Of a stretch of DNA of 55,153 nt, positions 3,931 through 29,206 are shown piece after piece. This stretch comes from a virus. Under the pieces are notes generated by a model. The model saw only the letters and a list, made by a program, of their open reading frames with translations, was not told the DNA's origin and did not search any database. The position numbers were made by a program, and so were the translations under genes. Position 1 is the first letter of the stretch. Each line of letters opens with the position of its first letter. The stretch lies in IMG/VR virus record IMGVR_UViG_3300028833_002847, one strand, 5' to 3'.

Positions 3931-3932
3931 AA

Positions 3933-4650: not shown

Positions 4651-4692
4651 AAAAAAAGAGGGGTACTCAATTAAGAGTACCCCTTATTTTTT
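4651..4692. terminator. bidirectional intrinsic terminator at the convergence of the plus-strand early operon and the minus-strand late module
   Basis: A7 run, then a 10-bp stem gaggggtactc/gagtacccct with loop aattaa, then a T8 run. U-runs on both strands. Confidence 0.75.
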
Positions 4693-6251: not shown

Positions 6252-6280
6252 TTTCCGCACCTCTTTTCTATATAAAAAAA

Positions 6281-6312
6281 GAGTCCCATATTTCAGGGAC
6301 TCTTTTTATTTT
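6281..6312 (-). terminator. intrinsic terminator between the holin and the endolysin
   Basis: Stem gagtccc/gggactc with an 8-nt loop. Followed on the minus-strand transcript by a U7 run immediately downstream of the holin stop. Confidence 0.55.
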
Positions 6313-6601
6313 ATTCTTTTAGATGAGCAGGCTGCTTTTTTAATTCATGCATTAGTATGTCTGCTTGAAGAGCGGGTTGAGTAAAACTGTTATTCTTCCA
6401 TCAAGCGATAATAGAAGCTACAACAACAGCAACACCTGAAGCAATTTCATAAATATTGTTTTCATCAATATCAATAGGAGTTCACCCAAGTAAAGCGCAA
6501 AAAGCATTAACTAATGCAATAAATAGAACAATGGTTCTAGCAATAGTCCCAGGTTCAATTGAAAGCAATCCGTCTAAATTAATTGTTTTTGCTTCAGCCA
6601 T
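6311..6601 (-). CDS. holin (LL-H / phi-LC3-like class, about 95 aa)
   Basis: SD AAGGTG. Charged N-terminus. Two hydrophobic helices (IARTIVLFIALVNAFCALLGW and ASGVAVVVASIIAWW). Polar C-terminal tail. Directly upstream of the endolysin. Confidence 0.65.
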
Positions 6602-7445: not shown

Positions 7446-8078
7446 CTAATTACCTTGTATAATTTCTTCTATTTCATCATCTGTAACAGCTCTAAATCCA
7501 AAGTCCTCTAATGTTTGATTCCCTGTAAGTTCAACTCCATTAATAGAAGGTTTGTTTGTAACATAAAGATAATCTGTTACACCTTCGAGTTCAACTTCTT
7601 CTAATCATTTTGTAATATCTTCTACACTTTGATTCATAACTATTGCAGCTTGTGAAAACAAATTATAATCATCAGAAGCAATAAATTTATCTAAGTCTAT
7701 TGGGTCTGCGGAAATAGTAACTTGAAAATCATCTGTTCCAATTAAACTATTATTATCAACTTTTTCAATTTTACAAATAATATGTCCTTCTTGAATCATT
7801 TTTGATGGTCAAGCTATTTCTCAGACTGGATTAATTTTTAAAGTTTTATCTCCAACTTCAATACAATTAAATACATTATAGCCTTGAATATCTAATTCTT
7901 GATGATGCCATTTTAAATAAATTTTAGTAGAAGAAGTAAAAACAGAAGCAGCTTCTTGAGAAAAAATTACTTTTAATTTTTTTCCATTAATATCATTGCC
8001 ACTAAATATCATATCTTCTATTGGTTGATAAAAAGATTTTATTTCTAAAATACAAGAAGTTAATGATAACATATTCAC
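7446..8078 (-). CDS. hypothetical protein (about 210 aa; fragments 7821-8078 and 7605-7799 joined across TGA; real stop TAG at 7446-7448)
   Basis: Fragments share a frame and were joined manually across two TGA codons. RBS AGGAAGAGGTG. The start may be GTG 8078 or ATG 8072. Confidence 0.5.
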
Positions 8079-8100: not shown

Positions 8101-8148
8101 CTAAAATTATTATAAAATAGGGCATCTTACTTTTTGTAAAATGCCCTA
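8101..8148 (-). terminator. intrinsic terminator after the giant LRR gene
   Basis: Stem tagggcat/atgcccta with a U-rich tail on the minus-strand transcript. Confidence 0.5.
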
Positions 8149-8155: not shown

Positions 8156-11100
8156 TTAATTTTGTTCTGGAATATAGAAGTAACCTTTATCTGTATTATT
8201 ATTAACAGAGCCATCTTTACGATAAGCAATATAAATAGTATGCGGGATTCCTTCCAAATTCTCAAATTTTGCTTCTTTATAATTCATATTAGAATTACCA
8301 TAAGTATTATAATTATAATTACTAGTAGTAGGTTGAGCATCTATTTTCATAATTAAATAGTCATAATTGGATTCTCCATATGAACAATATTTAATGATAA
8401 ATGTATCATATCCATCAATATTAATCATACAAGTATCAGTAGTATTATGTTGATTTGTATGTTTACTACTATAATATACTGTATGACCATCTACTTGAGT
8501 TCCACTATTAGCTCATTCATCATTATTAAGGTCTATAATATATTCTTGTTGAATTAATATTACTCTTAATATCTTTGTAGCAGTTATACTATTATTATAA
8601 ATACTAGTAGCTGTAATAATTAAAGTATCTCCATCAGAAGCATTTACTAATTTAACTAAACCATTAGTATCAATAATAGCGTTACCTTCAATAGACCAAG
8701 TTACTCCACGATATTGCGGGTCAACATCAATACTATCATCTGGGTCTATATAGACAGGAGTTAATTGAGCAACTCTATCATAAACATCTTGTTTATAACA
8801 ATTGATAGTTTCAATATTGGAATCTAATCTTATAGATACTAATTCTTTATCAGAGCCATCTTTAAAAGCGCTTAAAACATTTTTTCATTGATAAGCTGCT
8901 TTATATGTTGGGAATAAGCTTAATGGAATATAAATAGAGGTTACACCAGTAGAAGAAAGATATGTATTAGTATCTGAATTAAAGTTTTTAAATACTCCAC
9001 GAGCATAAATTGTTCTAAGATTTGTCGCATATCTAAATATTTCTGATGTAGAATTAACTGCTGAAAAATCTCAACCAGAAATATCTATTGTATTTAATTT
9101 ATCACAATAATAAAATAATCCATATAAATCTGTGACTGTTGAGAATGTTCATTTAGACATATCGAGTTCAGTAATTGCTCTATCATATCAAAACATTTGT
9201 CTAATAGTAGTAAGATATGGAGTATGCATTTCTCCAAAATGAATACTTGTTAAACTAGGATTGTTTGCAAACATAGCTTGCATTGTAGTAACATTTGTTA
9301 CATCCAATAGATCAAAGTCAAAAGTTTTAATTCTTGTTTCATTAAAAGCATGACTTAAACTAGTAATTTGTGAGGTTTCACTATTAATAATATCAAAAGA
9401 GCCAATCTGATAACGACCACTTAAAGTAATATAAGTTCCACTAAAATTATTAAATGTAATATTTAATGTACCAGCGCTAATATCATTCATAGTAGAAATA
9501 ATGGTACTAATTCTACCGCAATCACTACAATTAATAAATTCTGTATTGGTAATTTTACTATCATAACGAAACATGTTAGATACATTTGCGGAAGATGGTA
9601 TATGTGGAATAATAACACTCGTTAAATTTGAACAATTTGCCATTGAATATTGTAAATTATTAATTTTATCAACAGATAATTTTGTAGCATCAAGAATTGT
9701 CATTTTACCTTCATAGAAAGCATAATTAAAATTACAGTCTGCTTGTTCTCGCATATTTCATTTTGAAGTATCTAAAATAGTTAAATAAGGACACATATGG
9801 AAACAATATGTATAATTAGTTACATTTGAAAAATCCATATTAATATCTTTAAGATTATGAATTCCAGTTCCCGCATAAGCATAATTTAATGAATTAGGTT
9901 TATTTCTTTCATGAATAATAATTTCTCCATTGTTATTTTCTACTCAATTAACCATATTAATATTTTTAATTCTAATAGCACTTCTAATAAATTCATTAAA
10001 ATTATTATTAATAGTACCTTCAACAATTAAAGTAATAAAACTATTACTATTATTAGCTCCATTACAAATTCATCTAATTAAACTATTTCCACCTGTTCAA
10101 CCATTACATTCAGAAAAATAAATATTTTGAAGAGCAGAACAACCTTTTAAACAATCAGTGGCATAGCCACTATCATAATCATAAAGTTGCTTAGCATTCC
10201 TAAATTCAATTGTGTCAAGAGTAATACAATTTTCAAACATATGAGTCATATGTAAATAATAAGCTCGATTAGCAACTACTAAATTTGGAAATTCTATATA
10301 ATCAATAGACGTACATTCTGCAAACATATAATCATAATAAATATCTGTTCCTTTATTAATATTCATATTATAATTTTCAGGGAAAATAATCTTTTCAAGT
10401 AAACCACATTGATAAAACATATATCTTGAATCTTGAATTTTAGTAAAATTAGAATAACCAATATCTACAGTTACTAAATTAACACATCCAGAAAACATAT
10501 ATTGAGTATTATTTACATTTCCAACATTTCAAGTAGTCATATTTATTTCTGTAACAAATACTTCCATATTATTAGCTATAGTTCCAGAATCTTCCATAAA
10601 TTTAATTTTAGTTATGGCTCTACAATTTTGAAACATGCAAGACATATTAGTTATAGGAGAAGTGTCAGCATCATTTGTGGTTGTTGTTAATCTAAATCAA
10701 TCAATATAATCTAATTCATAACAATTTTGGAATCAACCTTGCATACTAGTAATTCCAATAAATTTAGAATATTTTAAATTAATAGATTTTAAAGCTCAAC
10801 ATCCAGTAAATAAATATTGAGCACCAGAACTACTTAATTCAACAAAATTTACACTACTTAAAGTTAAATTTGTTAAAGAATGACAATTAATAAACATTCT
10901 GCTAATATTAGTAGCTCTACATGGATTAGTAAATAAATAATTAATATTTAAAGTTTCAAGAGCATAACAATTTCCAAACATATATTCTAGACTTCTACCA
11001 CCAACTCATGGGCTAGAATTATTATTTTGTCCAACTCTTGTAAATGAAACATTGTGTAAGTCTAAAGATTTTAAAGCTCTACAATGATTAAACATACTTT

Positions 11101-14100
11101 GACAATACATTACATTAGAAAATAATCAGCCATTATCTCCTTGATGTGTATTAATTTCTTCAAGAGCATAACAATTTTGTAACATACAGGTTGTACTATA
11201 AGCGCCAATCATATTGAAATGTTGATTTAAAGTTTTTAAAGCATAACAATGTTGAAACATGTATTGGAAATTGGTACATTTTTGAGAAATAAAACTATCA
11301 GGAAAAGTTAATTCTTCAAGAGCATGGCATCCTTCAAACATCCCGTCAACTCTTTGAAGATTTGCTCCTCCAAAGGTTTCTGGAATTCTAATTGATTGAA
11401 GAGCATAACATCATTGAAACATTCTTTCTGCACTAGTATTATTTATCATTGTAAAAGTATCTGGAAGATATAATTCTTCAAGAGACTCACAATAACAAAA
11501 CATATACGTAGCATTATCTCCACTTCATAAAGAAGTATTAAAATTAGGAATCAAGAGATGCTGTAATGATTTACAATTATAAAACATTTGATAAAAATCA
11601 GAACATTTAATAGTATTAAAACTTGTTAAATCTAACTCTTGTAAAGATTGACAATCATAAAACATTTCATACATTGTAGTAACATTTTCTGTTGAAAAAT
11701 TACTAAAATCTAAAGTTTCAAGTTTAGTACATGCATAAAACATTTCAGAAAAAGTAGTTACTAAATCTGTATTTAATGGAGTTAAATCAAAAGTTACTAA
11801 AGAAGAACAATAACAAAACATATTAGCACAATTAGTTAAACTGTGTCAATATTCCATACCACTAATATCTAAAGTAGTTAAATTAATACAATCATAAAAT
11901 AAATTAGATACATTTTTAATACTTTGTCCTTGAGCCCCTCATGTAGACATATCAATAGTAGTACCTCTATATCCTCTAAATAAATTAGCAATACTAGTAC
12001 AAGTATTAATATTTCACTCTTCTAGATGAAGATCAACACTACTACCACAATAAGTTCCGCCTATTGATTTTCCTGCTAAATAGAAAGTATTATCTCTATA
12101 AATAACTCTTTGTAATGCTGAGCATCCTCAAAATTGAGCCTGAATATTTTTAACATGTTCAGTCCAAAAACTAGAAAGATTAATAGTTCGAATAGTATTA
12201 GCATTTAAAAACATTACTGCTCAATTAATAGAAGTAGTTGTTTCTTGAATATTTCATTGAGACAAATCTACACTAGTTCCCTTATAGCCACTAAACATTG
12301 CTACAAAACTTGTTTGCTGTGAAACATCTCAATGACCAATATTTAAAGGAATTTTAATATTATAAAACATTTGCCCAACTGCTGTATAATATGTATATCT
12401 CATACTTCCATTAGTACCAGTATCAATTCATCTTGTAGAATAGTTTTCATTACTTCAATAATCAATTGAATTAGCCTTCATTATAAATGAATTTGTTTCA
12501 AAAGTTTTAAGTTTAGAACAATTATAAAACATAGCTTCAAAATTTACAACTTTAGAAGTATTAAATGTTTGAATTTTTAAAGTAATTAAATTAGTACATT
12601 CAGCAAACATTTCTGCCATACTTGTTCCTTGAGAAGTATCTCAATTAGAAAATATTAATTCCGTACCTTTATAACCATAAAACATTCTAATAAAATATTT
12701 CATTAAAGAGGTATTAAAAAGAGTCAAATCATGAATTTGTCCTATACTTCCATTGAACATGTCTCTAACATTTACACTAGAATGGAACTTTCATTCATTT
12801 GTTATATACAAATCCTGTAAATTAGAGGTTCCATAAAACATTTCTGACATATTGGTACAAAATTCAATATTAAAGTCTGAAAGAGTAATTGTAATTGCCT
12901 TACAGTTATAAAACATTTGTGACATATTAATACAAGATTCGGTATTAAAATCTAAAAGAGTAACTGTAGTTGCTTTACATTCTCTAAACATCTGCGACAT
13001 ATTGGTACAAACTTCTGTATTAAAATTTGAAAGTGCGATTGTAGTTAATACAACATTTGTATTATAAAACATTTGATACATTGTTGTTACATGAGAAACA
13101 TCTCAAGTAGAAATATTAATTTCTGGAAGAAAACATCCACCAAACATATAAGTCATATCTGTAACTGAAGAAGTATCCCAAGTATTAAATAAAATTCAAG
13201 GAGCATGTACATCTGCAAAAGTATTAATCATATTCTGTACAGAAGAAATATCTCAAGTAGATAAATCTAATCCATTAGTAAAAGTAGACAGCCTAAACAT
13301 AGCTCTGAAAGAAGTAATATTAGAAACATTTCAATTTGCAACGTTTATATTTGTAAAAGTTGAACGATACAACATTGCTCTTAAATTAGTAATATTACTA
13401 AAATCTAAATTTTCAGCTTCTAATGTTCCAATAGTAGAATCATAAAAGAAACTAAAATCACTATCTCAACTAAGAATATTTGTTAAACTAGTAATATCTC
13501 AATCTGTAATATTAATTAAATTTGCAGTACATCCTCTAAAAATAAATTGCATATTAGTACAATTACTCATATCTCAGGTTCTTAAATCTAATTCAAGACT
13601 AGATGTTCCCATTTCTCTAAACATACCACTAGCATTTAAAACTTCACTAGTATCAAGAATATCTAATCCTTCAATAGACTGCAAACCTTTTAATTTATAA
13701 AACATATTCATACTATTAGCATTTAAAATAATAGGTGCTGCAACTTCAAAAGTAATAGTAATTGTTCCAGTATCATTATCTCAATTAGCTACTACTGGAG
13801 AACCTTGAGAACCAATAGCAATACCAGATTTTTGAATACCATTTTCAAATATTATATGTTTAATTTTAGTATCTTCAAAATTACCATCTGTAACATTACT
13901 TCCATTTGCCATACGTTTAATAGTATAAGAAAATTCACCACCAGAAATTAATCTAGAATTATATTTTTCTGGAAGAAGCGGAAAATCATAATATGTTTCT
14001 ACTTTAATAGGAATATCTTCATTTCAAACAGTATACATATTTTGAACACCAGTATACATATCTTTAGGAAATTGCATTGGATATAAAACTATATTGTAAT

Positions 14101-17100
14101 CTAAGTAAGTAGAAGAGACATAGAAAAACGCTCTATCCTCATTTGAATCAACACTACCATCCTTACGATAAAGTAAAGTAATAGTATGCGGATTATCATC
14201 ATAAATTTCATATACAACTGTAGTATATGTCGTACTTGGTTTTCCATAAGTATGATATTCACAATTAGAAGTTGATAATCCAGAAGTTTGATCAAGTTTA
14301 CTAACAATTAAATAATCATAATTTGATTCTCCATTAGAACGAACTCTAATAGAAAATCTTGAATAACCTTGTATAGTTAAATAACAATAAGCATTTCCAT
14401 TAGCAATATGATAGTTAGAATTACTTTTATAAATTTGAGAACCATTTATAGCATTATCACCATCTTCAATCCATTGGTCATTTAAATCAATAGATCAAGA
14501 AGCATCAGATAGGTGTTTAATAGAATATCCTTCTATTTCTGCATTTCTAGCAGTATCATAAAATTGTCCTATATCCATTTGCTGCATAGCTAAACAATTA
14601 TATAAACCATTTTCTTTTTCAGTATAATTAAATAACGTTCTATGTTTGCGGAAATCGAGGTATGTCATACTTTCACAACCAGAAAAAATTTCTCGCATAT
14701 CCCGCAAATAATTAGAACATAATAATACTATATTAGTTTCAATAGTTTTACAATTCATCATCATTTGATAAGCTGAAACGACGGTATTAAAAATAATTTC
14801 AGGATAGCGCTCTTGTTTAATTTCTATTAAATTATAACAATTCTTAAACATTTTATCAGCATTTTTAATATACATAAAAGGAAATACTTTAGTAACTAAA
14901 TCATAAGTAGGAGCTGCACCTGTAGATTTTGTTCCTTTTGGTCAAATAATTTTTTCAAGTTCATAACAATTTTCAAACATTGATGACATATTACCAATAT
15001 TTTCAGATGTTAAACCAAGATTTCCATTATTATTATATGGTAATCCGGTAGCTTGAGCTAAATTATGATAAGTTTGGAACATCCAAGTACTTAAATCAAT
15101 TTCTTGTAATTTTCTACAATCTTTAAATATTCTAACAAATCAATATTTTTGACTATTACTAGTATTTTCAGAAGGAGAATATTCAGTTGTAGTACCTCTT
15201 CAATCACCAAATTTTAGATTAACTAAAACTAAATTTTCAAGATTATAACAACCATCAAAAGTTCCTTCAAATTCTTGAGTTGTATTATAATTAGTAATAT
15301 CTATAGGTCTATCATTTGGAAATTTAATACTTGTAATTTTATGACAGTTATAGAAAGTTTCTTTCAATGAAGTTAATTGAATATCATAACCGCCATATTG
15401 ATGCCAACTCCTATTACCTCCAGTAATTCAATTATAACCAGCATTTGGATTTGTTTTAGGAATAAATTTAGAAAAATCCATTTCCATTTCTAAATTTTTA
15501 CAATTATAGAAAGTTTGACTTAAATTTCATAAAACCATATTTTGAGAACCATTACTTGATTTATCAAATTGACCATTAGTAGTAATACTCTTTAAGTTAG
15601 TAATATCAATTAATGATTCACAATTATAAAACATTTGTTTAAATTGATTATTAGAATGTCTATCAACATAATAAGTTCAACCACCACTTGGGGTATAATA
15701 TCTCCTAAATGCTAAATTAATTTTTTCAGGTAGGATAATATGTTTAACATTTATACATTCTTTAAACATTCCTTCATAACAAGGACCATTAAAAACATTT
15801 GAATATTTTAAATTAATTTCTTCTAAAGATTTACAATTATAAAATAAATAAGAATAATCGTATAAATTTGTAAAAAAGAAATATTTTAAATCTAAACTTT
15901 GTAAAGATTCACAATTATAAAAACATCTACCTACTAATTCAGTTTTTCTTCAATAAGCACTAAAACCAAGAGATTGAGCATACTGTCCATGTAAATCTGT
16001 AATTGTAATTAAGGATTTACAATTATAAAAAATTCTATCAAAATTACAATATAAATAACAATTAGACATATCAAGTGCGGGAAGAGATTCACAATTTTCA
16101 AACATACTAGCAGCTTTTACAAGACGTCCATGAAATTCCATTTTAACAAAATCTAAATTAATTAAAGATTTACAATTACAGAACATATAAGAAACATCTG
16201 TGACACCTCTTGTTCTTCATCTATCAAAAATAATAGATACTAAAGATTCACAGTTTAAAAACATTTGGTTTGTAGAATATAATCACGGACTTTCAACATC
16301 TCCCATATCCAAAGATTGGAGATTAATACAGTCTTTAAACATTTTCTTAATATCTCTAGCCATATGCCAATTAAAATTAGATAAATCTAATTGAGTTGCC
16401 AAACAACCCTCAAATAAATTATTAAAATAAATATTTTCTTTATTAAATTGTGCGGTCAATTGCTCATAAATCACATCTGGCAACCAAGCAAAAATATAAT
16501 CTTTCTTCCTTGGGAATATAATTGAAGAAATATCAATTTCTCTTAAATTATTACATCCAGTAAACATATATGACATATCTTGAACATTAATTGTATTAAA
16601 ATTAGATAAATCTGCAAAAAGTAAGGAAGCACAATTATAAAACATATAAGACATATCTATAACATTATTTGTATCAAAATCTTTAAAATCAATTAAACTT
16701 AAAGATTCACAATTACTAAATAAATGTGTCATATCTGTTACTTTAGAAGTATCTATATTTTCAGGAAGTATAAGTTCTTTAAGATTTTTACATCCATTGA
16801 ACATATATTCCATATCTATAACGTTAGAAAAATTAAAATGAGATAAATCAATATAATCAAATAATTCACAATTATTAAACATATAACTTGTATCAGTTAA
16901 TGTTTGTAATTCTAAATTAGATAAATCTACAGTAATAAGCGAAAAACATCCGTCAAACAAATGAGAAATATTTGTAATATTTTCCCATTGAATCTTATTG
17001 AAATTGTTTATGCGTCGTAATTCCCGCATATCATAAAAAGTATATTCTGCATTATCTCTAATTACAAAATTTTCAGCTCTGGTTTGAATAATAATTTTTT

Positions 17101-19930
17101 TAGTGTCACTATTATAATAAATGTATGGCCCAACATATTCTATATCATTAATAGTAGTTATATATTGAGTACCATGTGGACTAACAATTCTTGTTCTAAA
17201 GTCTATACTTTTAATTTCTTGTAAAGAAACACCTTTAGTTGCAGAATAATTTTCTATCATATTCCGCAATGCCATCCCTGAATAAAATATATTATTATCA
17301 AAGCCATATGTTCTTTCTAGCAGCTCTTGGGTTACAGCTCTTTCTCTAATATATTTTCCAGGCCCATCAATTAAACCAGTAACATTAATATTAAAATTAG
17401 GAATAATACTTTCTTTAGTAGTATCATATTTTGATAAAATAACTTCGTTATCATTGTTAAGAGGAAGCTTATATCAAGGTTCATCCGTTGTTAATTGTTC
17501 ATAACCATCTGTCTTTTCATAACTTTTATTAATTATAACAACATTTGCTGTTGGGATATAATTTTTTAAACATTTTCTTAAAGTAGAATTATAAGATTTT
17601 GTTGCTCTATTAATAGTTTTCATTCTTCCTCAATCAACATCTGAGAAATTAATAGAACGTAAATCTGAACAACCTTTAAACATAGTATCTAAACCATAGA
17701 TATAATATCAATCATAATATTTCTCATCATATCCTCTATGTGTTTTTCTATAATTAGTTATATCTTCAAGATATATTTCATCACAAGGATCTTGAAAAGG
17801 AATTAATTCTTCTCTTGTAACAACAGGATTCATTTTAAAATTAGTAATATCAGTTAATCTCTCATCATCATTAAACATATATGCATAATTACAACAATAA
17901 CTAGTATTAATTTTTTCAAAAGAAAAATCTTCAAGATAAATCATTCCAGAGAACATACCAGAACCATCTGCTGGAATATAAAATTCATTTTCTGGTGTTG
18001 CTACAATTAATGTTTTAGTATCATGGTCATAATCTCATGTTAAACTATTAGAATAAACTTTTTTACTATATTCATCTACTCTAACAACCAAACTATTAGG
18101 AAGCGGGAATAATACATTCGTTCTTCATTCTATATGTTTTATTACTTTTCCAGCAAATTGTTTACTAAAATTTTGACCTAAGAAATTATGCATAGAAGGA
18201 TATTCATAATAAGGCTCTGGTTTGACTATACAATCTTCTCTAATATATCTACCTATTTGATGAAGATTTAATTGATAAGTTCTAATACCAGTATTTTGTT
18301 CTATCATATAATATGGTAAAGCTAATCCAATATCTTTTAAATATCCATTTCTATTTTGGTCAAGACCTAATAAACTAGAAGCAGCATCTTTATTCATTCC
18401 TGCATCAACTGCTAATTTAAATAAATCTTGCATATAAGCTTGTACGTATTTGTCTTGAATATAATCACTATATGGAAGATTTACTGCTGGAGTATATTGA
18501 CTATTCATATTAGTAAACATACCCTCTTGTACCATATTACCAGTAGTTAAATCCATTACTTCTTGAGTAACTACTTCCGTATATGACATTCTTCAATCAA
18601 TACGAAGTCCAGCTTCTACACTATTTAATAAATCATATCCTGGCACTCCACTAATATTATATCCCATAAAGGCACTACTAGAAGTCATTGTATTAACTTC
18701 TGTATAAGTAGTAATACTAGGTTTAATTCCTTCAACTGTTTGAAAATCTTGTCGTGGACTATAAGCATCATAATGTGCAATTTGTCATCCATTTACACTT
18801 AACATAGTTCTAGAACCTGTTAAAATTTCTTGTAAATTTCAACAATTATGAAAAGGAGAATTTACATGCAATGTTTCTTTACCAGAATAGAAGAAATTAA
18901 TTCAATTAGTTCAATCAATTTTCTTTAATTGGTAACATTCAGAAAACATTCCTGAAATATTATTAATTGAAAAAACTGGACTATCAAAAGTAAATTCTTC
19001 AAGAGAAATACAAAAATGAAACATAAAACTTACATCTTTAAGAGATGGAACTTTTCAAAATAAATTTCTAGGATTTGTTTTTAAACTATAACAATGAGAA
19101 AACATGTTTTTCATTGAAACCAAATTTGGAGCAAATATAGGTTCAATATTAACAGTAGTTAAATTAGGACAATATGCAAATGTTTCTTGCATATATGTAA
19201 CTTTACTGATATCAATACCCTGAAGATTTGCTTCTACGAGATTTGGACATTCAGAAAACATTTGAGTCATATTACTAGAACGTAATACTTTATCTCCATA
19301 AAATCTAAAATTAACAAATCCACATTGAGAAAACATTCCAATCATTTCACACTCATGATAAAAAGTTGGAAGTTTAACCTCAACTAAACAAGAACAATTT
19401 TTAAACATTCAATTTAAAATTCTAACATTGGAAGCGTCTCAAGAGGTCAAGTCAATTGTATTAATACTTAAACAACCTTGAAATCAACCCTGAAAACTTT
19501 TAACCAATGAAGTATCTAAATTACCTATATTAAAGATAAGTCATAATTCACTCATACCAGAAAACATATTGGTCATATCTTCTGGAACTACAACTTTTCC
19601 ATTAAATACAATATTTTTAATTTCACTATTATAAGCAGACCATGGATTAGTAAGATATTCTTCTGATAGGTAGGTAACTTTATCAGGATCACCAATTACT
19701 AATGTCCCATGGTCTGTAATAGCCCAAGGACAATCACCATTATATCCAGAATAAAGAATTTCTCCACCTCGAATATATTTTTCAAGGTCAGACATTTCTT
19801 TTCCTGGAAGGTCATCAATAGCAGAAGAAAATTCGTAAGGCATATAGGTTTCATCTCGCCCATTCTTCTCACGAATAGCATCTGCAATATCCGTTAAAAC
19901 AGATTTTTTAATAAATACTTCTTCTGCCAT
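8156..19930 (-). CDS. giant BspA/DUF285-type leucine-rich-repeat protein (about 3924 aa in table 4). Candidate receptor-binding or tail-associated protein, apparently a fusion of two ancestral units.
   Basis: At least 15 listed ORF fragments between 8156 and 19930 share one frame. I checked the junctions at 9754-10097, 14075-14495 and 17275-17708 and found only TGA, no TAA/TAG. Start ATG 19930 with RBS AAAGGAG. Stop TAA 8156-8158. Roughly 24-26-aa repeats of the form L..LDLS.F.TSNVT.M..MF..C..L, with WD.S variants where W is TGA. An internal non-LRR domain sits at 18125-18589. Confidence 0.55.
12840..13075 (-). repeat. three tandem ~78-bp DNA repeats (about 75 percent identical) encoding consecutive LRR units
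   Basis: Visible tandem units, each ending ...aacatttgtgacata / ...aacatctgcgacata / ...aacatttgatacat. Protein repeats FNTE(V/S/F)CTNMSQMF..C. Confidence 0.55.
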
Positions 19931-19942
19931 TTTATCTCCTTT

Positions 19943-22900
19943 TTAATTTGGGTAAATTACTCTATAAGTATCTGCTACATTTGCGGGAATATCGTATGTA
20001 ATTTCACCAGTTGTTTGACTTTCATATCTAATATCAGGACTGGCCGCACTAGCTCTTTTATTAATACTAAATTCCCTATTAGCATAAAAATACATTTCTA
20101 CATTATCTCCCATAATAATTTTATCTAATAAATATCCACCATCTTTACCACTACTAGCAGATAAAAAATAAGTTGTTGTGGGAGCGAAACCTTGATTTAA
20201 TTCAATTTCTAATCCAGATAAATCAAGAGTTTTAATACATTCACATCCTGTTAAAGCATAACTAGCATTAACTGTAATAGTAGGTCTATAAGAACCTTGA
20301 TAAACTTCAACAGAATCTTTTAATTTAAGAGGTAATAATTTAAAATAATTTTCTTCTCCATTTGGACCAACTTGGTCTAATCCTAATCTTCTACAATTAT
20401 AAAACATTTGTTCCATATTATTTAATTCTAATGGCTCCATATTTTGCGGGAAATCAACCCTTCTAAGATTAATACAGTTAGCAAACATATAAGCCATATT
20501 TTTAATAAGAGTAGGATTCAATTCTCAAGTAGAAATATCTACACTATATAAACTAGAACAATATCTAAACATTTGAGCACAAGTAGTTAATGCTCCTACT
20601 GCTCATTGCGGGAAAGCAAGATTTTCTAAACTTGAACAATTTAAAAAAGCTCCTTGTAAGTTAATAAAAACAAAAGATGAAGATGTTTCAGGTTGATTAA
20701 AAATATGTAAATTAGTACAACCAGAAAACATTTCTTGTCCAATAAATGCTTGTCTAGGAGCTTGATTAAAAAATGTAATCTCATTTAACATTGTACATTT
20801 TTCAAGAATATTTCTAATATTCGTACAACTATATAGATTTAATGGCCGCAAATCAATTTCTTCAAGATAAGTACATCCTGAAAACATATAAGACATATTA
20901 ACCACATTCTTTGTATTAAAAGTAGATAAATCAATTTGAGGCAATGTTTTACAATTCTGAAACATATAACTCATATCAGTGACCCGCACAGTAGTAATAT
21001 CATTAAATTCTATTTCAATTAATCCTGTAAATGATGCAAATAACTTTGCACTATTGGGAGCAAAGAAAATTAATCTATTTGGAGTAAATACACTAAGTTC
21101 TCCACTTTCTATATCAAATGCAGCATAAGCTCCTGCATTATTATAATAATCTCCTACAGCTACATAGAAATCTAAATCAAATAAATCTTCGTCCATATTA
21201 GCATCTGTAGCATAAAAAATAATTTTTCTTACTTGACTATCTACTGTAGCAGAAGTAGTTTTAGTATTGCTCATATCATCATTAATAAAGTTTTTAATTC
21301 TTTTATTAAAGTTCTCTCCATTAGTTAAACTACCACAACCATAATATACGTCTCCACCATCTGGAACTATCGTACCTATAATATAAATATCCTCTGCTGT
21401 TATAACTTCTTCAAGACTTGCAGAATACATATTAACTGAGAATTTAATAGATTTTTCATTTTGAAAATAAGCAATATCATAACCTTGTGGAATAACCAAT
21501 GTTCTAATACTACCACAATTTGTTAACATATCAGTAGCATTAATTGAGCTATTTGGTAAACCAGATGTTGAACTACCATTAAGAATTAAATTACTAAAAT
21601 CAACTTCTTTTAATCTATAACAATTTTGTAAAAATCCTGTAAAATTAGTTACACTATATGTACTAAAAGGTAAAACAAATTCTGTAAATTGAACACAATT
21701 ATTAAACATATTTGACATATTTTTTACTCTAGAAGTTGTTTCAAAAGAATCAAAGAATGTCATATTCTCTCATTTTAAACTAGTACATCCTTGAAACATA
21801 CTAGCCATATTTGTAACATTATCCATATCAAAATTAAATAAATCTATTCCAGTTAAATTACTACAATTTTGGAACATACCACTCATATTTGTTACATTTG
21901 AAGTATTCCAATAGGTGAGATTTAATTGATTAGAACCTTTTCAATTTGCAAAAAAACTAGCTAAAGAAGTGCGGGCAGAGACATCTCAATAAGTTGTATC
22001 TATTTCCGCAGGACAATTTCTTCAAAAATTGCCAAATGGAACATCTTTAGTAATAACTCATCCAGCACCAGTTTCTACTTTTTCTAGAGAAGTACATCCA
22101 TCAAAAAATGCTTCTAAAGAAATTGTTACACCTGATAAGTTTAATTTTGATAAATTTATATTTTTTAAAGAAGAACAATTTGCAAAAACAAATCGAGCAA
22201 AACATAAAACAGAAGTTGTTTCTCAATTACTGCAATCAAGTTCTTCTAATTTTTTACAATTATAAAAAGCATAATTTAATACAGATAATTTTTTAAGATT
22301 AGAAAAATTTTGGTATATATGAATTAAATTTTGACATTCATTAAAAGTATAGTGAAAAGTTGTTAGATTTCTTCCATCTCCAATTGAAGTTAAATCTACT
22401 TCAACTAATAAAGAACAATTATTAAACATTGATTGAAGAGATTCTACTGATTGCATATTAGATGGAAACTCAATAGCTCTTAATTGAGAACAAGAATTAA
22501 AAGCTGAATCAAAATATTTAACATTAGAAAAATCATTTTGAGAAAAATCTATTGCTGTTAAATTTGTACAATTTCTAAATAAACCTCTCATATCTATTAC
22601 ATTAGAAGTATTAATATTTTCAAAACCTAAAACTAATCAAAGAGAATCTAGTCCTCCAAATAAACCCATAATAGAAGTTTGTACTTCTATTGGTTCATCA
22701 ATAATAATTAACCTAATATATTGTCTATAATTATATCAATAAGACCAATATAAAGTTTCTGTAATATCTTTCTTTTGAGCCACATTTCAACGACTATAAT
22801 TAGAACCACCATTAATTCAAATATTACTAGTATTTGGTTCAGGTAATTCTCCACCATGAATAAAAAGAACACCTTTTCTAGAAATTTCTCATCTACATGT

Positions 22901-23503
22901 GCCAATAGTACCAGAATATAAAGGTTCAGTTTCTTTAATAAAAGATGATAAAAATACATCTGTATCAATTAAATCTATTGCGGGAGCCATCTCAGAAGGA
23001 GTATAAGTATCTTCAATTCCTTCTAATTTATATCTAATAGCATTTGCAATATCAAATAAGTCTTGCTCTTTTACAAGAACAAGACTTTCAGGTTTACTAT
23101 TTTCAACTACTGTATAAGCATAAAAATTTTGATTAGTTGTTATATCAGTAGTATAATCAAAAACTAAAGTATGCGCTCCTTGCGGGACTTCAATAGTTCC
23201 CTCTTGTAAACTTGAAATATTACCATTTCCAGCTTTATAAGAAATAATCTTTCCATAAACATTAAGAAAAGCTATTCCTCCTAAAGTAGAAGAATTTTGG
23301 AAACCATAATATAATGTTTTTCCAACTTGAGTAGTAATATCTGCAAAATAATAATTTCATAAAGAAGAATTTTGAGTGGTACCAGCAGCATAATTAGTAC
23401 CACTTCATTCTCCAGATTTAACGAGGTAAATAGCTCCAGAGACTATAGGAGCATCCTTTAAAATATTTATGTGTTTTGCATAAGAATCTCCGCTACCAGC
23501 CAT
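19943..23503 (-). CDS. BspA/DUF285-type LRR protein paralog B (about 1186 aa, table 4)
   Basis: Start ATG 23503 with RBS AAGGAGG. Real stop TAA 19943-19945. Fragments 22223-22591, 20603-21763 and 19943-20521 share its frame. Has a ~150-aa N-terminal extension, then the conserved module ...LFDIANAIRYKLEG...LYSGTIGTCRWEI shared with A and C. C-terminal module ends ...ADTYRVIYPN. Confidence 0.6.
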
Positions 23504-23513
23504 TTAACCTCCT

Positions 23514-26500
23514 TTAATTATATTGAATTGTATAAGTATCAGCTATATTTGGTGGAATAGCATTAAACTCTTCATTATTAGTATTAACATAAGTAATTAA
23601 TGATGTGCTTGGCTCTCTAGCTGTAAAGTTCTTATTACCAACAAAATAAGCACCAATTAAATTACCAGTAATAATTGTATCAAGAGCATATCCACCTTGA
23701 GCACCAGTTTCAGCAGTTAAGAAATCTGTTGTATCTGGTAATGCATTCGTGTTATTTCTATAAAGACCCATCTTAGAGAATTTATAAATATATTCTCTAC
23801 CATCTGAAACTTCAGCCAAATAAATAATACAATATACGGTAGTACGATTACCACTGTTAAAATTAACAAGATATTCATAAGATTGTTCTGAAGCCATATT
23901 ATTAAAATTAACACTACTAACAATAGAATCTGAAATACCACCTTGATAATTAGATGCACTTCCCGCAATATAATATCTAGCATTTCCATTATATCCACTA
24001 GGAGTATTAAAAGCTAATGAAAAAGTATAATTTGTATTAGCAATAACAGAGAGTGGTATAACAATTTTTTCATATCCGCCACGTCCTGTTAACTTCATGG
24101 TATTTATATCATTAACATTATCATACTCATTATTAAAATTAGTATTTGCATAATTATCAATATTATAACGATTTCAATTATTAATATTCTTTTGATTTGC
24201 AGTTAATAAATTAGTATTATCTAATGTTTCAGTAGAAATAATATTTAATTTACTTAAGTCTAATTCTTTAATTCCTTTACAACCAGCAAGAACACCTTTA
24301 GCATTAATTCTTGTAGTTGAATTACCAGAAATAACATTTTGTAGTAGGAATCCTGGTAATGTAAATGCACTTGGAATAAAACTGTATTCTTCATTTACTA
24401 ATGTTCTGGTAGTCCCAAGTTTCTCACAATTTTGGAACATATAAGAAATATCAGTAGGAATTAAAGTAGGCATATCAATTGGGAATTTAATAGAATAAAG
24501 ATTTCTGCAATTTTGGAACAATCTTGGTAATTTCTTTAATACATCATTATCAAATTCTCAATCTTCAATATCTATTGTTTCAAGATTAGTACAATCAGCA
24601 AAAATATAAGATAATGAACTTAATCCTGTAACATTTCAATTATTTAAATCTAAGCTTGTTAATGAACTGCATTGATAAAATGCTCCATCTAAATTAGAAA
24701 AATTAAATAAACCATTTGTTGCTGGTTGATTAAAAGTAGATAAACTTGTACATCCAACAAATAATTCTTTAGCATTCAAAGGATTTTGTCCAACTTGATT
24801 AAAGAAAGTTAATGTTTCAAGTTGATTATCATTCATAAACATTGTTTCAATATTCGCAAGAGCATTTGTTTCAAAATAAGTTAAATCAATACTCTTTAAG
24901 GATACACAATTATTAAAACAATTCTTAAATGATTGATTCTTAGCTGTATTAAATAAAGTAAAATCAAATGATTCCATTGAACGACATTCTTGGAAAGCAC
25001 TTTCAAAAGTAGTAACTGAATAAGTGTTAATATAGGCAAAGTTAATTTGTTCCAATGCCCGCATTCCTCTAAATAAGCTTTCACAATTCTTATTAAATAA
25101 AATAAATCGTTCATTTGTTACTATTGTCATAGTAGCTGTTTCTTCATCTCACTTAGCATAAGCTCCAGCTCTATTATAGTAACATCCAATCCCATACCAA
25201 CTACTATCATTTTCAAAGAATTCTTCATTTTGATCTCCAGTAGCAAGTTGGAAATTAATAATTTTAATATTAGAATCCATTTGACTATAGCTTGTAGAAC
25301 TATAAGCGATACCAGAAGCGAGATATTTAAGATAACCATTAACTTCTCTACCAGTAGAAAGAGCTCCACAACCATAATATGTTTTTAATCCAGTATAAAT
25401 ACCTCAATCCATATCATAAATTTGTTCTGGTAAAATGTCTATACTAGCATTAGCTTCATACATATAAATTGGGAAGCATGGTTGATATCAAGTATAAATA
25501 TCTGTTAAAGTATATAAATTAGTTTCTACTTTAACTGGTATAAATAAATTTGAATCATAAGAATTACCAACATATAATTCTCTTAAATTTGAACAATTCT
25601 TCAACATATTTTGAGCGTTAATAGAATGAGCTTTTGCAGTTCCATCGTCATTATCTGCTCCATGTAATATTCAAGTTGTTCAATCAATACTTTTTATTTG
25701 ATAACAACCTTGTAACATTTTTTGATAATTAGTTACATGATAAGTACTAAAAGGAAAATGAAACTCGTTAAATAAAATACAATTTTCAAACATTGATTCA
25801 ACATTAGTAACATTTCTTGTACTATCAAAATCATAAAAGAAAGTAATATCTTCAAGTTTTAAATTTTTACAATTATAAAACATATAAGATAAATCTGTAC
25901 ATTTAACAGGCTCAAAACTAAAAATACTAACACCTGTTAAATTAGTACAATTTCTAAATAACGACTTCATATTTAAAGCATTTGAAGTATCTCAAAGAGT
26001 AAAATCTAATATTTGATTACCTTTCCAATCTTGGAAAAATGCTTCAAAACTTTGTAATGCTGAAACATCTCATTGTCTTGTATTTAAATAAGCAGCACAA
26101 TTAGCAAACATTTGTTGAACATTTGCATTAGCATTAAATACTCAACCATTATTTGTTTTAATTTCTCCAAGAGCAGTACAACCAGAAAAAATTTGATTTA
26201 ATGTAGTAGCTCCTGAAATATCAAAACCAGATAAATCTAAAACAGTTAAACAAACACAATTTTGAAATGTTTGTTGTAAATTTGTTAAAGCATTGGTAGT
26301 AATTCATTTAGAACAATCAAGATTTGATAATTTTGTACAATTTCTAAAAGCATATCTTAAATTTTGTAATTTAGATAATCTTTTAAATCTAGTAGTAATA
26401 CTTCCAAGTGCGGGACATCCATCAAAAGTACATTCCATATTAACAATATTTCTTCCTTCATCCAAAAAAGAAATATCAATTTTATCTAATAATACACAGG

Positions 26501-27167
26501 CTGCAAAAGCATATTGTAAATTCTGAACATCATATCCACAATGATAATCAACATAATTAATATCTGGAAACTTAATTTCCATTATTTGTGAGCAACCATT
26601 AAAGATATAAGACATATCTATAATATTTGTAAAATCATTTACAGAAAAATCAATTCCCGCAAGTCCTTTACAATTTTGAAACATAAAACTAATATTGCTA
26701 GTTTTAGTTAAATTTAAATAGTTCATACTATTTATTAATCAAAGTTTATCAAGTCCCGCAAAGAAATAAGACATATCTGCTCCTGCAATAACAGGACCTT
26801 CAAAACTTACTAATTTAATAAAACTTCTATAATCATACCAAGGAGAGTTTGTTTTTCCAGTATCCCGCACAAAATCTTTTCCATTTTCACATTTCCCTCG
26901 ACTTATATCAGGCAGGACTCCCGCATATAAAAACAAAACTCCCTTAGTAGAAATTTCTCAAGAACAAGTTCCAAAAGTACCAGAATATAAAGGCGTTTTA
27001 TCATGAAGAAAAGAGGTGACGAAAGTATTAGTCTGAATTGAACGAATAGCGTCAGCCATTTCTCCAACTTTATAATTTTTAGAATAATCTCCTAATTTAT
27101 TTCTAATAGCATTACCCATATCTGTTAGATATTGTTTGCTAATAATCACCCTTTTCTCTTCACTCAT
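23514..27167 (-). CDS. BspA/DUF285-type LRR protein paralog A (about 1217 aa, table 4)
   Basis: ATG overlaps the tail fiber stop (TAATG at 27165-27169). Fragments 26958-27167, 26739-26936, 26304-26726, 25680-25970, 24636-25130, 24174-24521 and 23514-24098 all share one frame. Junction 26958 checked and is TGA. Real stop TAA 23514-23516. Has the N-module MSEEKRVIISKQYLTDMGNAIRNKLG and C-module ...ADTYTIQYN. Confidence 0.6.
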
Positions 27168-29206
27168 TAGAACTCCATTCCATCTGCATATTCATAATCT
27201 GGAATATAAAAAGTGACAGTTTCACCATTAATAGTAATACTTCCCAATTCAATTCCACTCTCATAAACTGAAGTTGCAGATACCATATCCTTATTGACGG
27301 AAACTCGCCCATCTCCTGTAATAATTAAATTATCTCCAATTTTGATACCACCAATTACATCTGCTGTTGCTATTGGCATAGAACCAATAGTACCATCAGG
27401 ATTAATAACAGTAGTACCAATAATATCATCAATCATACTATTAGTAGTTTCTTTTACATCAAGAACACCTGCTCCACTAATAGTAAAGCTATTTTCACTA
27501 GCAATTATACCACCTAAAACACTATTAGAAGCAGGATTCAAATGAACAGTATAACTACCATCTTGTTCTAATTCTTGTCTAAAAGTAGAAGAAAGTGCGG
27601 GTAATGTTAAACTTCTATTTCTAACACTTTTCTCATGTCCGTATTGATCAAAAATAATATAAGGGAAGATTAATTGACCACCAAGCATTAAATTAGCTGC
27701 ATCTTGATATCCAGCAGCCGTCATAACACCAGAACCACTATCATGTGTAATGGTCATTCCTAAATCTTCATCATAAATAATTTTTAATCCACTATCTTCT
27801 AATATATTTAAAGCTAATACATTATTTTCAGTTAAATAAATAGGACTAATATCTGAATCTACTCTTACACCACCTAATGCAGATTTAGTGGCTGCTGGTA
27901 ATACATAAGCAGTTCTAACAGACAAAGTTCCTAAAGCATCTACAACAATTGTTCTACCATCAACCATAACAGAACCAAGAGTTGTAGTAGATGCTATTTT
28001 AGTATTAGCGGAAATATGACCTTCATCATCTATTGTAATTGTATCATTATCAATTTTAACTCCACCTAAACGATCATGAGTCGCCATTGTAATTGAAAAA
28101 TCTGAAAAAGTAGTAGATAAAACTCCATTTTCATCTATTTGAAGAGTTTCACCATCAACTATAATACCACCTAGAGTTGATTCTGTAGCCATAGGTAACT
28201 CATAGCTAAAAACACTACTAATAGTACCAGTAGCATCAATAGTAATAGTTTCATTATCTACCATAACTCCACCTAAAGTATTATTAGATGCCATAGGTAA
28301 TTCATATGAGCTATCTATTGTAGAAATAACTCCATTTTCAATAACAATAGAAGTATTATCAGGTCTAACTAAACCATAAGAAGAATCATCTGCAAATGGT
28401 ACAGAAATTACTCCACGGTCATTAATTAAAATAGTTTGACCATCTGGAATAACTCCACCAAGAATTGATAAAGTAGCAATAGGTAATGTATAACTTTGCG
28501 GGAAATCAACAGACAAATAACCATCCTCATCAATTGTTACATTGTCCCCTGCCCGCACAATACCTAAAGTATTATCTGTAGCAACGGGTAAAGCTAAATC
28601 TGTAAAATCGACATGGATAAAACCATATTCATCCATTTTAATAGATTCATTATCAATTCTTACACCACCTAAAACAGATGATGAGGCTCTTGGTAATTCA
28701 TAAATAGTATCTGTAGCAGATAAGACACCATCTTGAGTAATTTGAAGATTTTCACCAACTTTAATTCCTCCTAAAGTATTAGCTGTAGCAGGATTTAAAG
28801 TATATTGTTTTGCGCTTAAAACTCCATTTTCTACAAAGATAGTAGTATTATCTGGTCTTGAAATACCTTTAGTATAAGCAGTAGCATCTCCAATAGAAGA
28901 AATATCTGGTGTAGTTCCACTTTCAGAATCTCCACCTTCTCCATTAGTAATATCTGAAATTTCTTCATTAGTAGCAATAGTATCATTACCTGTACCACTG
29001 CCACCCCCACTACCACCAACTACTGTTAATACTCCTTGATTAACAGTAATTGTTTCATTATCTGGCATTACTAGTCCCGCAACGGAAGCTGTAGCAAGTG
29101 CTAATTTAGCATCAATTAAACGCATATTTTCATTAAAGATACTAATATCAGCATCTTCATTATAATCTGGTAATGTTAGTCCCAAATTGGGTGTATAAGT
29201 TGCCAT
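27167..29206 (-). CDS. tail fiber protein with about 12 tandem ~28-aa repeats (679 aa)
   Basis: RBS GGAGGATAG before ATG. Repeated motif (S/N)TLGG(V/I)x(V/I)D(N/G)(E/D)TIxIDxxGx(I/L)S(V/T). Gly-rich segment SGGGSGTG. Sits downstream of the baseplate genes. Confidence 0.6.
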   Translation of the reverse strand: MATYTPNLGLTLPDYNEDADISIFNENMRLIDAKLALATASVAGLVMPDNETITVNQGVLTVVGGSGGGSGTGNDTIATNEEISDITNGEGGDSESGTTPDISSIGDATAYTKGISRPDNTTIFVENGVLSAKQYTLNPATANTLGGIKVGENLQITQDGVLSATDTIYELPRASSSVLGGVRIDNESIKMDEYGFIHVDFTDLALPVATDNTLGIVRAGDNVTIDEDGYLSVDFPQSYTLPIATLSILGGVIPDGQTILINDRGVISVPFADDSSYGLVRPDNTSIVIENGVISTIDSSYELPMASNNTLGGVMVDNETITIDATGTISSVFSYELPMATESTLGGIIVDGETLQIDENGVLSTTFSDFSITMATHDRLGGVKIDNDTITIDDEGHISANTKIASTTTLGSVMVDGRTIVVDALGTLSVRTAYVLPAATKSALGGVRVDSDISPIYLTENNVLALNILEDSGLKIIYDEDLGMTITHDSGSGVMTAAGYQDAANLMLGGQLIFPYIIFDQYGHEKSVRNRSLTLPALSSTFRQELEQDGSYTVHLNPASNSVLGGIIASENSFTISGAGVLDVKETTNSMIDDIIGTTVINPDGTIGSMPIATADVIGGIKIGDNLIITGDGRVSVNKDMVSATSVYESGIELGSITINGETVTFYIPDYEYADGMEF

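Follow-up and report, generated by a model that had tools for sequence, protein, structure and literature searches.

We propose that three giant leucine-rich repeat (LRR) proteins, encoded side by side at positions 8156-27167 of the IMG/VR virus record IMGVR_UViG_3300028833_002847 (55,153 nucleotides (nt); hereafter the window), are probably late, virion-attached adhesins or receptor-binding proteins (RBPs) of the distal tail of a phage. As read from the sequence, their genes, which we call A, B and C, would each pair a novel helical adaptor of about 45 residues (the N-motif) with DUF285-type LRR segments that are exchanged between phages. Judging from its genes, the window itself represents that end of a large siphovirus-type genome which encodes tail and lysis. 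An earlier reading of the letters alone (the original prediction) had already suggested RBPs, and of the explanations weighed here this is the best supported: by the slot that the genes occupy, their coupling to a fibre gene, the recurrence of the N-motif behind tail genes elsewhere and the swapping of LRR segments, from which we infer incorporation into the virion and binding of a receptor.

The genes become visible only when TGA is read as sense. Translation table 11 breaks positions 8156-27167 into about 25 short minus-strand open reading frames (ORFs). With TGA as a sense codon, stop-to-stop ORFs of at least 200 amino acids (aa) rise from 6014 to 17603 aa over the whole window, a tripling of its long-ORF content that includes the endolysin and tail genes; recoding of TAG or TAA brought little or no gain and was rejected. 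Glycine at TGA (code 25) was rejected as well, since W, Y or F stand opposite TGA. At 32 TGA codons in conserved tail proteins of the window, the majority residue in standard-code relatives is W in 18 and Y or F in 7, and in the alignment of the paralogues A and B, TGA stands opposite TGA or TGG at 10 positions. Tryptophan (code 4) is the assignment that these alignments support for this phage. Under code 4, and only with TGA as sense, the three ORFs have exactly the lengths first reported for them (1217, 1186 and 3924 aa) and together fill 19,012 nt or 34% of the window, about the third that had been claimed; their 6327 codons include 91 in-frame TGA and no internal TAA or TAG, stops that might have split the genes into many small ones. 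TGA makes up 85% of their Trp codons (14 TGA and 3 TGG in A, 15 and 2 in B, 62 and 11 in C) and 17 of the 24 in the endolysin gene. Some late genes lack TGA: neither TGA nor TGG occurs in frame in the gene of the 679-aa fibre-like protein, and a 395-aa tail-like protein and a 266-aa protein encode Trp by TGG only. The plus-strand block at the start of the window contains almost no TGA.

Fragmentation under table 11, and the fact that no tRNA, and with it no suppressor tRNA, was detected within the 55-kb window (the genome has at least about 128 kb), could be taken to mean that the region is a standard-code graveyard of LRR fragments, a set of pseudogenes or a mis-assembled repeat. This explanation is effectively refuted by the alignment of TGA with Trp in standard-code relatives, by the tripled long-ORF content and by the recovery of the same genes from two more independent assemblies with TGA conserved (62 versus 61 codons in C). 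Under standard-code gene calling, public protein databases contain these proteins only as fragments of 60-130 aa.

All three proteins match Pfam DUF285 (PF03382, gathering score 25 bits) strongly: A with an E-value of 3.8e-39 (133.6 bits), B with 9e-53 (177.6 bits) and C with 1.2e-164 (538.6 bits, in 17 stretches). LRR_5 (PF13306, gathering score 27.7 bits) is matched above its gathering score by B (8e-26, 90.8 bits) and C (1e-43, 148.5 bits), while A, with no LRR_5 match at E <=0.01, is recognised by DUF285 only. The hidden Markov model (HMM) of the repeat unit has the consensus MFQNCTSLEEIDFSNFNTSNVTNMS, the type described from the letters alone, and finds units of 25 aa each, at least 23 in A, 24 in B and 70 in C. 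At the DNA level the repeats recur every 75-78 nt with only 60-80% identity between copies, which marks the array as old and diversified. A and B are collinear, with 36.6% identity over about 990 aa, a homologous linker and two LRR blocks each (13-14 units, then 10); C is collinear with A only over its own first 370-410 aa or so. From the N-terminus, A consists of the N-motif, a beta-hairpin cap, 13 units, the linker, 10 units, a unique insert of about 155 aa and a tail of about 77 aa, and C contains, besides its LRR blocks, long non-LRR inserts and a beta module that is present twice.

The PDB holds no sequence relative of a 396-aa LRR stretch. PHROGs, scanned with A and B only, returned large unannotated families of unknown function (9915, 22899, 17273, 29123 and 3649); A and B thus showed no homology to a characterised RBP or tail-fibre family in PHROGs, and none was found among PDB sequences. 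By Kyte-Doolittle hydropathy (19-aa window), the only test used, A, B and C contain no signal peptide or transmembrane segment: maxima are <=0.94 in the first 60 aa and <=1.42 overall, none exceeding 1.6.

In front of the repeats, A, B and C share an N-terminal module with 41 invariant alignment columns. A profile of its first 45 aa or so finds one copy of the N-motif per protein and none elsewhere in the window. The motif begins A and C, as had been stated of all three proteins, whereas in B it is internal. An AlphaFold model of C aa 1-129, a TGA-free stretch, has helices at 9-23 and 31-39 (pLDDT 72-79), then a low-confidence linker and a beta-hairpin at 58-72 that leads into the LRR (overall pLDDT 53). 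Because this part of C is modelled as a hairpin running into the LRR, the second, 'LYSG..G.C.W.I' half of the module looks like an LRR N-cap and not a separate domain. According to the model, only the first 45 aa or so form a separate, portable non-LRR element, and of the whole module once proposed for virion attachment only this part remains a candidate. The N-motif is absent from Pfam, NCBIfam and PDB sequences. A recurrence of the 'LYSG...LWL' cap before each LRR block of C was considered and rejected, as an HMM gave no significant extra copies.

Profile searches revealed that the first 40 aa or so recur in many proteins that are otherwise unrelated; the matches are short fragments because public gene calling follows table 11. 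We located the N-motif at 18 IMG/VR loci and 8 genome loci. Behind it, IMG/VR loci carry S/T-rich fibre-like repeats (L117, L127, L130), a Metallophos domain (L118, L121, L124), LRR_5 (L126, L128) or small proteins, with DUF285 elsewhere. In bacterial genome collections the contigs that carry the motif were assigned to Clostridia, Lachnospiraceae, Eggerthellaceae and one Methanobrevibacter metagenome-assembled genome (MAG). Annotation of nine contexts by Pfam or PHROGs identified eight as phage tail modules. The genes upstream encode a tape measure protein (L170), a tape measure and a tail protein (L113), a tape measure followed by a tail fibre (L128), a tail protein (L129), tail and host-range proteins (L123), or a J-like central fibre and a tail fibre (L122). 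The prophage L081 has a tape measure, proteins of 169 and 350 aa, the N-motif protein and then a lysin, and in L175 Dit, a Tal-like protein and a collagen-like tail fibre precede a protein with two N-motifs and a DUF285 LRR. The ninth context (L172) has no tail-family match among its upstream genes. The homologues that bear the motif have therefore not turned out to be chromosomal surface proteins unrelated to virions, an outcome that the original prediction had named as fatal to it.

Several of these loci deserve a remark of their own. In P0008 and L175, high-GC Actinobacteria-associated contigs (Eggerthellaceae/Rubneribacter), two tandem N-motifs precede the DUF285 LRR; the motif is thus repeatable and can lie away from the very N-terminus, which B of the window also illustrates. 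The Metallophos proteins of L118, L121 and L124 have about 640-660 aa and a calcineurin-like phosphoesterase domain; possibly they are enzymes carried on the tail that act on phosphodiester-linked polymers of the wall, teichoic acids for example. In L171, a Methanobrevibacter sp. MAG from goat ileum, the N-motif ORF lies about 3 kb from a gene matching bacterial-type endolysin families, and the contig is either a mis-binned bacterial phage or an archaeal virus carrying the motif. Past its lysin (12965-15428), L081 has genes for LRR_5, glycosyltransferase and CBM_5_12 proteins, a moron-like LRR context, and the same prophage carries a non-LRR N-motif protein in its receptor-binding slot.

In the window, the minus-strand gene order is 395, 538 and 158 aa, tape measure protein (TMP), 1817, 588, 552 and 747 aa, fibre, A, B, C, terminator, 210 aa, 266 aa, holin and endolysin. 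The array accordingly has the position claimed for it between tail fibre and lysis cassette, except that the 210- and 266-aa genes separate C from the holin. The spacing between fibre and A, A and B, and B and C is -1, 10 and 12 nt; ribosome-binding sites are of the AGGAGG type, promoter-like sites are no commoner than chance predicts (146 versus 143.5 in shuffled sequence), and a hairpin past C is the predicted end of a fibre-A-B-C transcription unit. The GC content of A, B and C (0.24-0.29) compares with 0.24-0.34 in the upstream structural genes. Coupled junctions, no promoter excess, a terminator only after C and the lack of a signal peptide argue against independently expressed, exported morons. 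That alternative, offered together with the RBP reading, is weakened by the missing promoter, the coupling to the fibre gene and the unremarkable GC content, and kept alive by Butyrivibrio virus Bo-Finn, whose DUF285 protein is encoded beside the small terminase gene, outside the tail module.

Megablast found no close relatives of the window among deposited phages, and the fibre protein, used as an anchor, had no matches in IMG/VR. The 395-aa protein has about 105 IMG/VR relatives on contigs of 75-175 kb. ORF statistics, with GC-rich loci judged by ORF splitting, assign standard code, TGA recoding or TAG recoding to these relatives (L001-L080); TGA-recoded ones are, for example, L001, L002, L008, L010-12, L056 and L070, and TAG-recoded ones L013-15, L025-27, L030, L032 and L074-76. 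The TMP C-terminus and the 1817-, 552- and 747-aa proteins recur in thirty standard-code relatives, 20 of which also have the 210-aa protein; in these, roughly 6-9 kb of different genes separates the 747-aa from the 210-aa gene. With the 210-aa gene as anchor, 35 loci were compared, and a homologue of A, B, C or the fibre is present only in the near-identical contig IMGVR_UViG_3300028591_004246. The slot otherwise contains proteins of 510-519 and 424 aa with modest matches to tail-fibre PHROGs (in L084 and L091 to families 454, 381, 7389 and 35419, E 1e-6 to 1e-8), unknowns and an HNH homing endonuclease. Since its contents differ between relatives and include tail-fibre matches, and since the LRR genes occur only in the near-identical contig, we read it as a hypervariable host-recognition slot with the LRR array as a lineage-specific filling. 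The view that this is where RBPs sit has held up: the slot follows the baseplate-region genes and precedes lysis, and relatives keep tail-fibre-like genes in it. The HNH gene (L084 13336-14349; phrog_559, E 6e-26), found in the fibre slot of a standard-code relative, is by ORF size apparently present in some sister contigs and not in others.

Two independent copies allow the evolution of the array to be followed. In the JGI metagenome contig L176 (Ga0326512_10000650), the gene order of the window recurs from the 588-aa gene through those for 552 and 747 aa, fibre, A and B to the 5' portion of C, which confirms all junctions. Amino-acid identity to the window and the ratio of non-synonymous to synonymous substitution rates (dN/dS) are 96.8% and 0.06 for the 588-aa protein, 94.8% and 0.19 for the 552-aa protein, 96.1% and 0.12 for the 747-aa protein, 96.3% and 0.13 for the fibre, 94.6% and 0.14 for A, 84.6% and 0.45 for B, and 80.2% and 0.32 for C (aa 1-881). 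At the N-termini of the LRR proteins, dN is <=0.02. In B, a segment within LRR block 1 has dN 0.40-0.51 and dS 0.40-0.66, against dN <=0.04 in its flanks; in C, aa 1-300 are conserved (dN <=0.02) and aa 301-881 divergent. As dS is raised together with dN, the pattern points to replacement of segments by recombination.

The second copy, IMGVR_UViG_3300028591_004246 (L115/L133), contains an intact C of 11,772 nt that differs from that of the window by 107 synonymous and 85 non-synonymous changes (dN/dS 0.19 over 3923 codons). This ratio and the gene comparison with L176 indicate that the genes are under purifying selection and functional, with conserved N-termini and exchangeable LRR segments, a combination typical in the classic sense of host-recognition proteins. 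The comparison of cassettes with related phages, suggested at the outset, has thus found both restriction of the array to the near-identical contig among the 35 loci and swapping of LRR segments in L176. The 68 amino-acid differences between the two copies of C, which are 98% identical, cluster in a few LRR stretches (aa 1416-1530, 2945-3180 and 3327-3338; about 15340..15680, 10390..11095 and 9915..9950) that may be micro-hotspots of diversification. The contig itself, 93 kb long, starts 13 nt upstream of the C ATG and lacks A, B and the upstream tail genes; its edge places a break of the public assembly at the B/C junction, probably caused by repeats, and together with the window it gives a genome of at least about 128 kb.

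At their C-termini, A and B share a tail of about 77 aa (39% identity) and C ends in a different, beta module, hence the conserved C-terminal ending ascribed to all three proteins applies to A and B. By sequence, the last 219 aa of A are an orphan: only near-identical fragments and no PDB relative were found. Word-indexed searches with the C-terminus of A or the beta module returned near-identical fragments only, and an exhaustive search was required for the beta-module family, a widespread portable domain: it comprises 1007 cluster representatives (E <=1e-3), with the module mostly at the extreme C-terminus. Among 48 carriers sampled, LRR_5 was present in 21, BACON in 9, viral BACON_2 in 6, DUF285 in 4 and the siphovirus tail domain Sipho_Gp37 in 2. 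The model of the module is all-beta at low confidence (pLDDT 54). Foldseek gave no match at E <=0.001 and a consistent weak drift to the jelly rolls of carbohydrate-binding modules (CBM6/35/61) and MAM domains; carbohydrate binding is a lead from modelling, not a result.

DUF285 corresponds to the PARCEL repeat, described as horizontally mobile and expansion-prone (PMC2996958), and in NCBIfam it bears the name 'PARCEL repeat-containing surface protein'; the models of the family are PF03382, PF13306 and TIGR02167. Giant DUF285 genes in phages are not unprecedented: ORF200 of Vibrio jumbo phage pir03, with 19,254 bp, is annotated DUF285 'PARCEL' (PMC7765460). The giant virus AaV encodes 38 DUF285 proteins of unknown role (PMC10720644). 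LRR RBPs of this size had been called unusual for a phage; giant DUF285 genes have parallels in pir03 and AaV, whereas the tail-slot context, the adaptor motif and the host-recognition type of evolution are new for DUF285 genes of phages. Our literature search found nothing relevant on LRR or DUF285 RBPs in phages and no paper giving such phage proteins a function.

Like other DUF285/PARCEL/BspA-type proteins, those of the window have 25-26-aa repeats in tandem with variable hydrophilic faces. Cellular members are exported surface proteins or lipoproteins; A, B and C, by contrast, lack a signal peptide by hydropathy and are marked by a phage tail operon, a phage-specific N-terminal motif and code 4. 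Modular phage RBPs and tail fibres, such as siphovirus RBPs encoded after Dit and Tal or those of branched multi-RBP systems, have a conserved N-terminal anchor and exchangeable distal domains. A, B and C resemble them in following the TMP and baseplate-region genes and preceding lysis, in the conserved N-terminus and mosaic distal parts, and in the presence of paralogous putative binding proteins side by side in a slot that is hypervariable among relatives. They differ in their distal parts, LRR solenoids of up to about 70 units as predicted from sequence in place of trimeric beta-helices, fibres and knobs, and in their anchor, a predicted helical hairpin of about 45 aa outside known families and structures. 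A DUF285-like LRR region in an annotated baseplate protein is found in the Klebsiella P2-like prophage ST16-OXA48phi5.4 (NC_049450), where gp35 ('tail protein I', 1008 aa), encoded between a baseplate protein and a tail collar fibre, is 23% identical to A over about 800 aa. Unlike the proteins of the window, gp35 is a single, ~1 kb-scale protein fused to a P2 gpI-type module, lacks the N-motif, uses the standard code and comes from a Gram-negative host.

Borges et al. (bioRxiv 10.1101/2021.08.26.457843) describe TGA-recoded code-4 gut phages, for example the 'Agate' phages of about 127 kb; searching that text gave no passage on LRR tail proteins. The window, which lacks a terminase, resembles these phages in reading TGA as Trp in structural and lysis genes, in the genome size of at least about 128 kb, in the Firmicute host that its features suggest and in having relatives, within one structural-protein family, that use codes 11, 4 and 15.

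We now propose a course of events for the three proteins. The phage would be a siphovirus, large and TGA-recoded, whose host is a Gram-positive anaerobe of gut or rumen; the domains of its endolysin imply a walled, probably Gram-positive host. A, B and C may be made only after the phage switches how the cell reads TGA, together with structural and lysis genes, as in the model of Borges et al., since TGA predominates among their Trp codons. Each protein would dock to the tail tip, baseplate or fibre through the two-helix N-motif of about 45 aa, and from this anchor a DUF285 solenoid of 23, 24 or 70 units would project by roughly 11 to 34 nm, at the usual 0.48 nm or so per LRR unit. Beta-sandwich modules that seem to resemble carbohydrate-binding modules, a weak structural lead, may interrupt and tip the solenoid. 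Three paralogues would then confer three binding specificities on each virion, and specificity would evolve by LRR-segment swaps between phages with the anchor kept constant; the mosaicism is observed, and host range would change with it.

Two further points were counted in favour of distal-tail adhesins, namely the DUF285-like region inside the Klebsiella baseplate protein and the co-occurrence of the C beta module with LRR_5, BACON, viral BACON_2 and Sipho_Gp37 tail proteins. A number of observations weigh against this reading. That A, B and C are present in the virion at all is something we infer, and the N-motif, which lies outside known structures and families, is not N-terminal in B. In deposited phage genomes (INPHARED) the motif was not found by tblastn even at E 10, which leaves it without a proteomic precedent in a cultured phage. 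LRR solenoids are typically monomeric, and most known RBPs are trimers; 3924 aa is an extreme size for an accessory fibre. DUF285 and LRR_5 proteins of phages are not always encoded in tail modules, as Bo-Finn and the post-lysin LRR_5 gene of L081 demonstrate. Finally, the structure models are of low confidence (pLDDT 53-54), and the resemblance to carbohydrate-binding modules is weak, with no Foldseek match at E <=0.001.

It is conceivable, if unlikely, that the proteins are virion adhesins that bind not an infection receptor but the environment (mucin or plant glycans, biofilm matrix, bystander cells) and thereby increase encounters with the host, a role previously suggested for Ig-like and BACON domains carried by phage particles. 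Such a role would suit the company of the C beta module (BACON, viral BACON_2 and LRR_5 adhesin-like proteins), its weak fold lead towards carbohydrate-binding modules and the great size and redundancy of A, B and C; the separate upstream 679-aa fibre-like protein could then be the true RBP. It fits less well with the tail-fibre-like genes that fill the same slot in relatives and with the swapping of LRR segments between sister phages, which is expected of host-range determinants. More doubtful still is that A, B and C are late proteins outside the virion, released at lysis or intracellular, which act as decoys or in aggregation, superinfection exclusion or host takeover and are merely parked after the tail operon. 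The positions of the Bo-Finn gene and of the L081 LRR_5 gene, among post-lysin accessory genes, would agree with this, as would the pir03 DUF285 ORFs, which are not annotated as tail genes. The lack of an own promoter, the tight coupling to the fibre gene, the terminator only after C and the lack of a signal peptide by hydropathy speak against it, and so do an N-motif common to proteins found consistently after tail genes and the place of the array in the fibre slot of relatives.

We consider it very improbable that mobile PARCEL-type palindromic repeats have expanded here selfishly or neutrally, without function for the phage. The published mobility of DUF285/PARCEL repeats (PMC2996958), their abundance in a giant virus where their role is unknown (PMC10720644) and the IMG/VR assembly break at the B/C junction lend themselves to that explanation; 6327 codons free of TAA and TAG, the dN/dS values of C (0.19) and A (0.14), DNA repeats that are only 60-80% identical, hence old and diversified, and a gene order kept across independent assemblies do not. 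Virion-attached adhesins or RBPs of the distal tail thus remain the preferred reading. A bolder version, which we put forward tentatively as possible, is that the N-motif (LTDIANAIR.K.G..dTY.P.EMA.AI) is an undescribed, widely portable docking adaptor by which gut and rumen phages that infect Clostridia and Eggerthellaceae fit interchangeable host-binding modules to their tails, and that in the window it mounts three giant, probably monomeric LRR solenoids, a new class of RBPs unrelated to trimeric fibres and spikes.

The features of the window are collected in Table 1. The 395-aa protein matches a PHROG of virion structural proteins (phrog_2729) and is probably the major tail protein; a capsid label for it was dropped, since PHROGs and its position before the tape measure favour the tail. 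The 1817-aa protein after the TMP has no Pfam or PHROG match. By the rule of thumb of about 0.15 nm of tail length per tape measure residue, the 3011-aa TMP would imply an exceptionally long tail of about 450 nm. Between the endolysin gene and the convergent plus-strand block lies a hairpin that would serve as a bidirectional terminator.

Table 1 Features of the window (positions of the whole stretch; aa, amino acids)
Feature	Position	Strand	Description
Plus-strand block	1..4640	+	convergent with endolysin gene
Bidirectional terminator hairpin	4658..4685		strong; 10-11 bp stem, 6 GC pairs
Endolysin	4692..6260	-	GH25, CHAP and PG-binding domains; 17 in-frame TGA
Holin	6311..6601	-	96 aa; phrog_263, E 3e-20
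266-aa protein	6628..7428		between 210-aa gene and holin
Conserved protein	7446..8078	-	210 aa; downstream slot boundary
Terminator-like hairpin	8118..8148	-	13 bp stem and T-run, 8 nt past C stop codon
Gene C	8156..19930	-	3924-aa DUF285/LRR_5 protein; 62 TGA; several LRR blocks with at least 70 units altogether
C beta module copy 2	8159..8512	-	aa 3807-3924, about 115 aa, 39% identical to copy 1
C LRR blocks III	9044..13597	-	aa 2112-3629, about 39 units in several sub-blocks; largest aa 2677-3283, 22 units
C beta module copy 1	14117..14449	-	aa ~1828-1938
C LRR blocks II	14612..16960	-	aa 991-1142 and 1197-1773, 22 units
C LRR block I	18812..19483	-	aa 150-373, 8 units (unit HMM)
N-motif of C	19796..19930	-	aa 1-45; motif HMM E 1e-21
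Gene B	19943..23503	-	1186-aa DUF285/LRR_5 protein; 15 TGA
B C-terminal tail	19946..20182	-	aa 1108-1186, homologous to A tail, 39% identity
B LRR block 2	20195..21028	-	aa 826-1103, 10 units (unit HMM)
B LRR block 1	21473..22624	-	aa 294-677, 14 units (unit HMM)
B mosaic segment	21989..22903	-	aa ~201-505, in LRR block 1
N-motif of B	22955..23083	-	aa 141-183, internal, behind 140-aa extension; motif HMM E 4e-21
B N-terminal extension	23084..23503	-	140 aa, unique, without paralogue in the window
Gene A	23514..27167	-	1217-aa DUF285 LRR protein; code 4; 14 TGA
A C-terminal non-LRR region	23517..24230	-	aa 980-1217; last ~77 aa common to B
A LRR block 2	24231..25061	-	aa 703-979, 10 units (unit HMM)
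A LRR block 1	25545..26684	-	aa 162-541, 13 units (unit HMM)
Second half of N-terminal module in A	26736..26993	-	aa 59-144: LYSG..G.C.W.I..G.L.I ... PW.Y ... F.G...LWL; LRR N-cap judging from the model of the equivalent stretch in C
N-motif of A	27024..27164	-	aa 2-48; motif consensus LTDIANAIR.K.G...TY.P.EMA.AI.; motif HMM E 2e-21
Fibre-like repeat protein	27167..29206	-	679 aa; stop overlaps A start by 1 nt (TAATG)
Baseplate-like tail protein	29219..31462	-	747 aa; phrog_32343 / phrog_1887 'tail protein'; conserved upstream slot boundary
Tape measure protein	40839..49874	-	3011 aa; PHROG matches in two segments (phrog_34405 / 4211)
395-aa protein	52273..53460	-	probable major tail protein

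No part of an uncultivated phage genome is harder to predict than its host-recognition proteins, and to our knowledge almost no phage RBPs have been characterised for Gram-positive gut and rumen anaerobes. A short tag that marks distal-tail binding proteins would make them findable in the gut and rumen viromes of these hosts. In recoded phages, such genes are entirely invisible to gene calling by the standard code, as this case demonstrates. If the proposal is true, DUF285/PARCEL repeats in viruses would gain a concrete function, and the adsorption repertoire of phages would gain the LRR fold, which adhesins of eukaryotes and bacteria and receptors of innate immunity use for ligand recognition.

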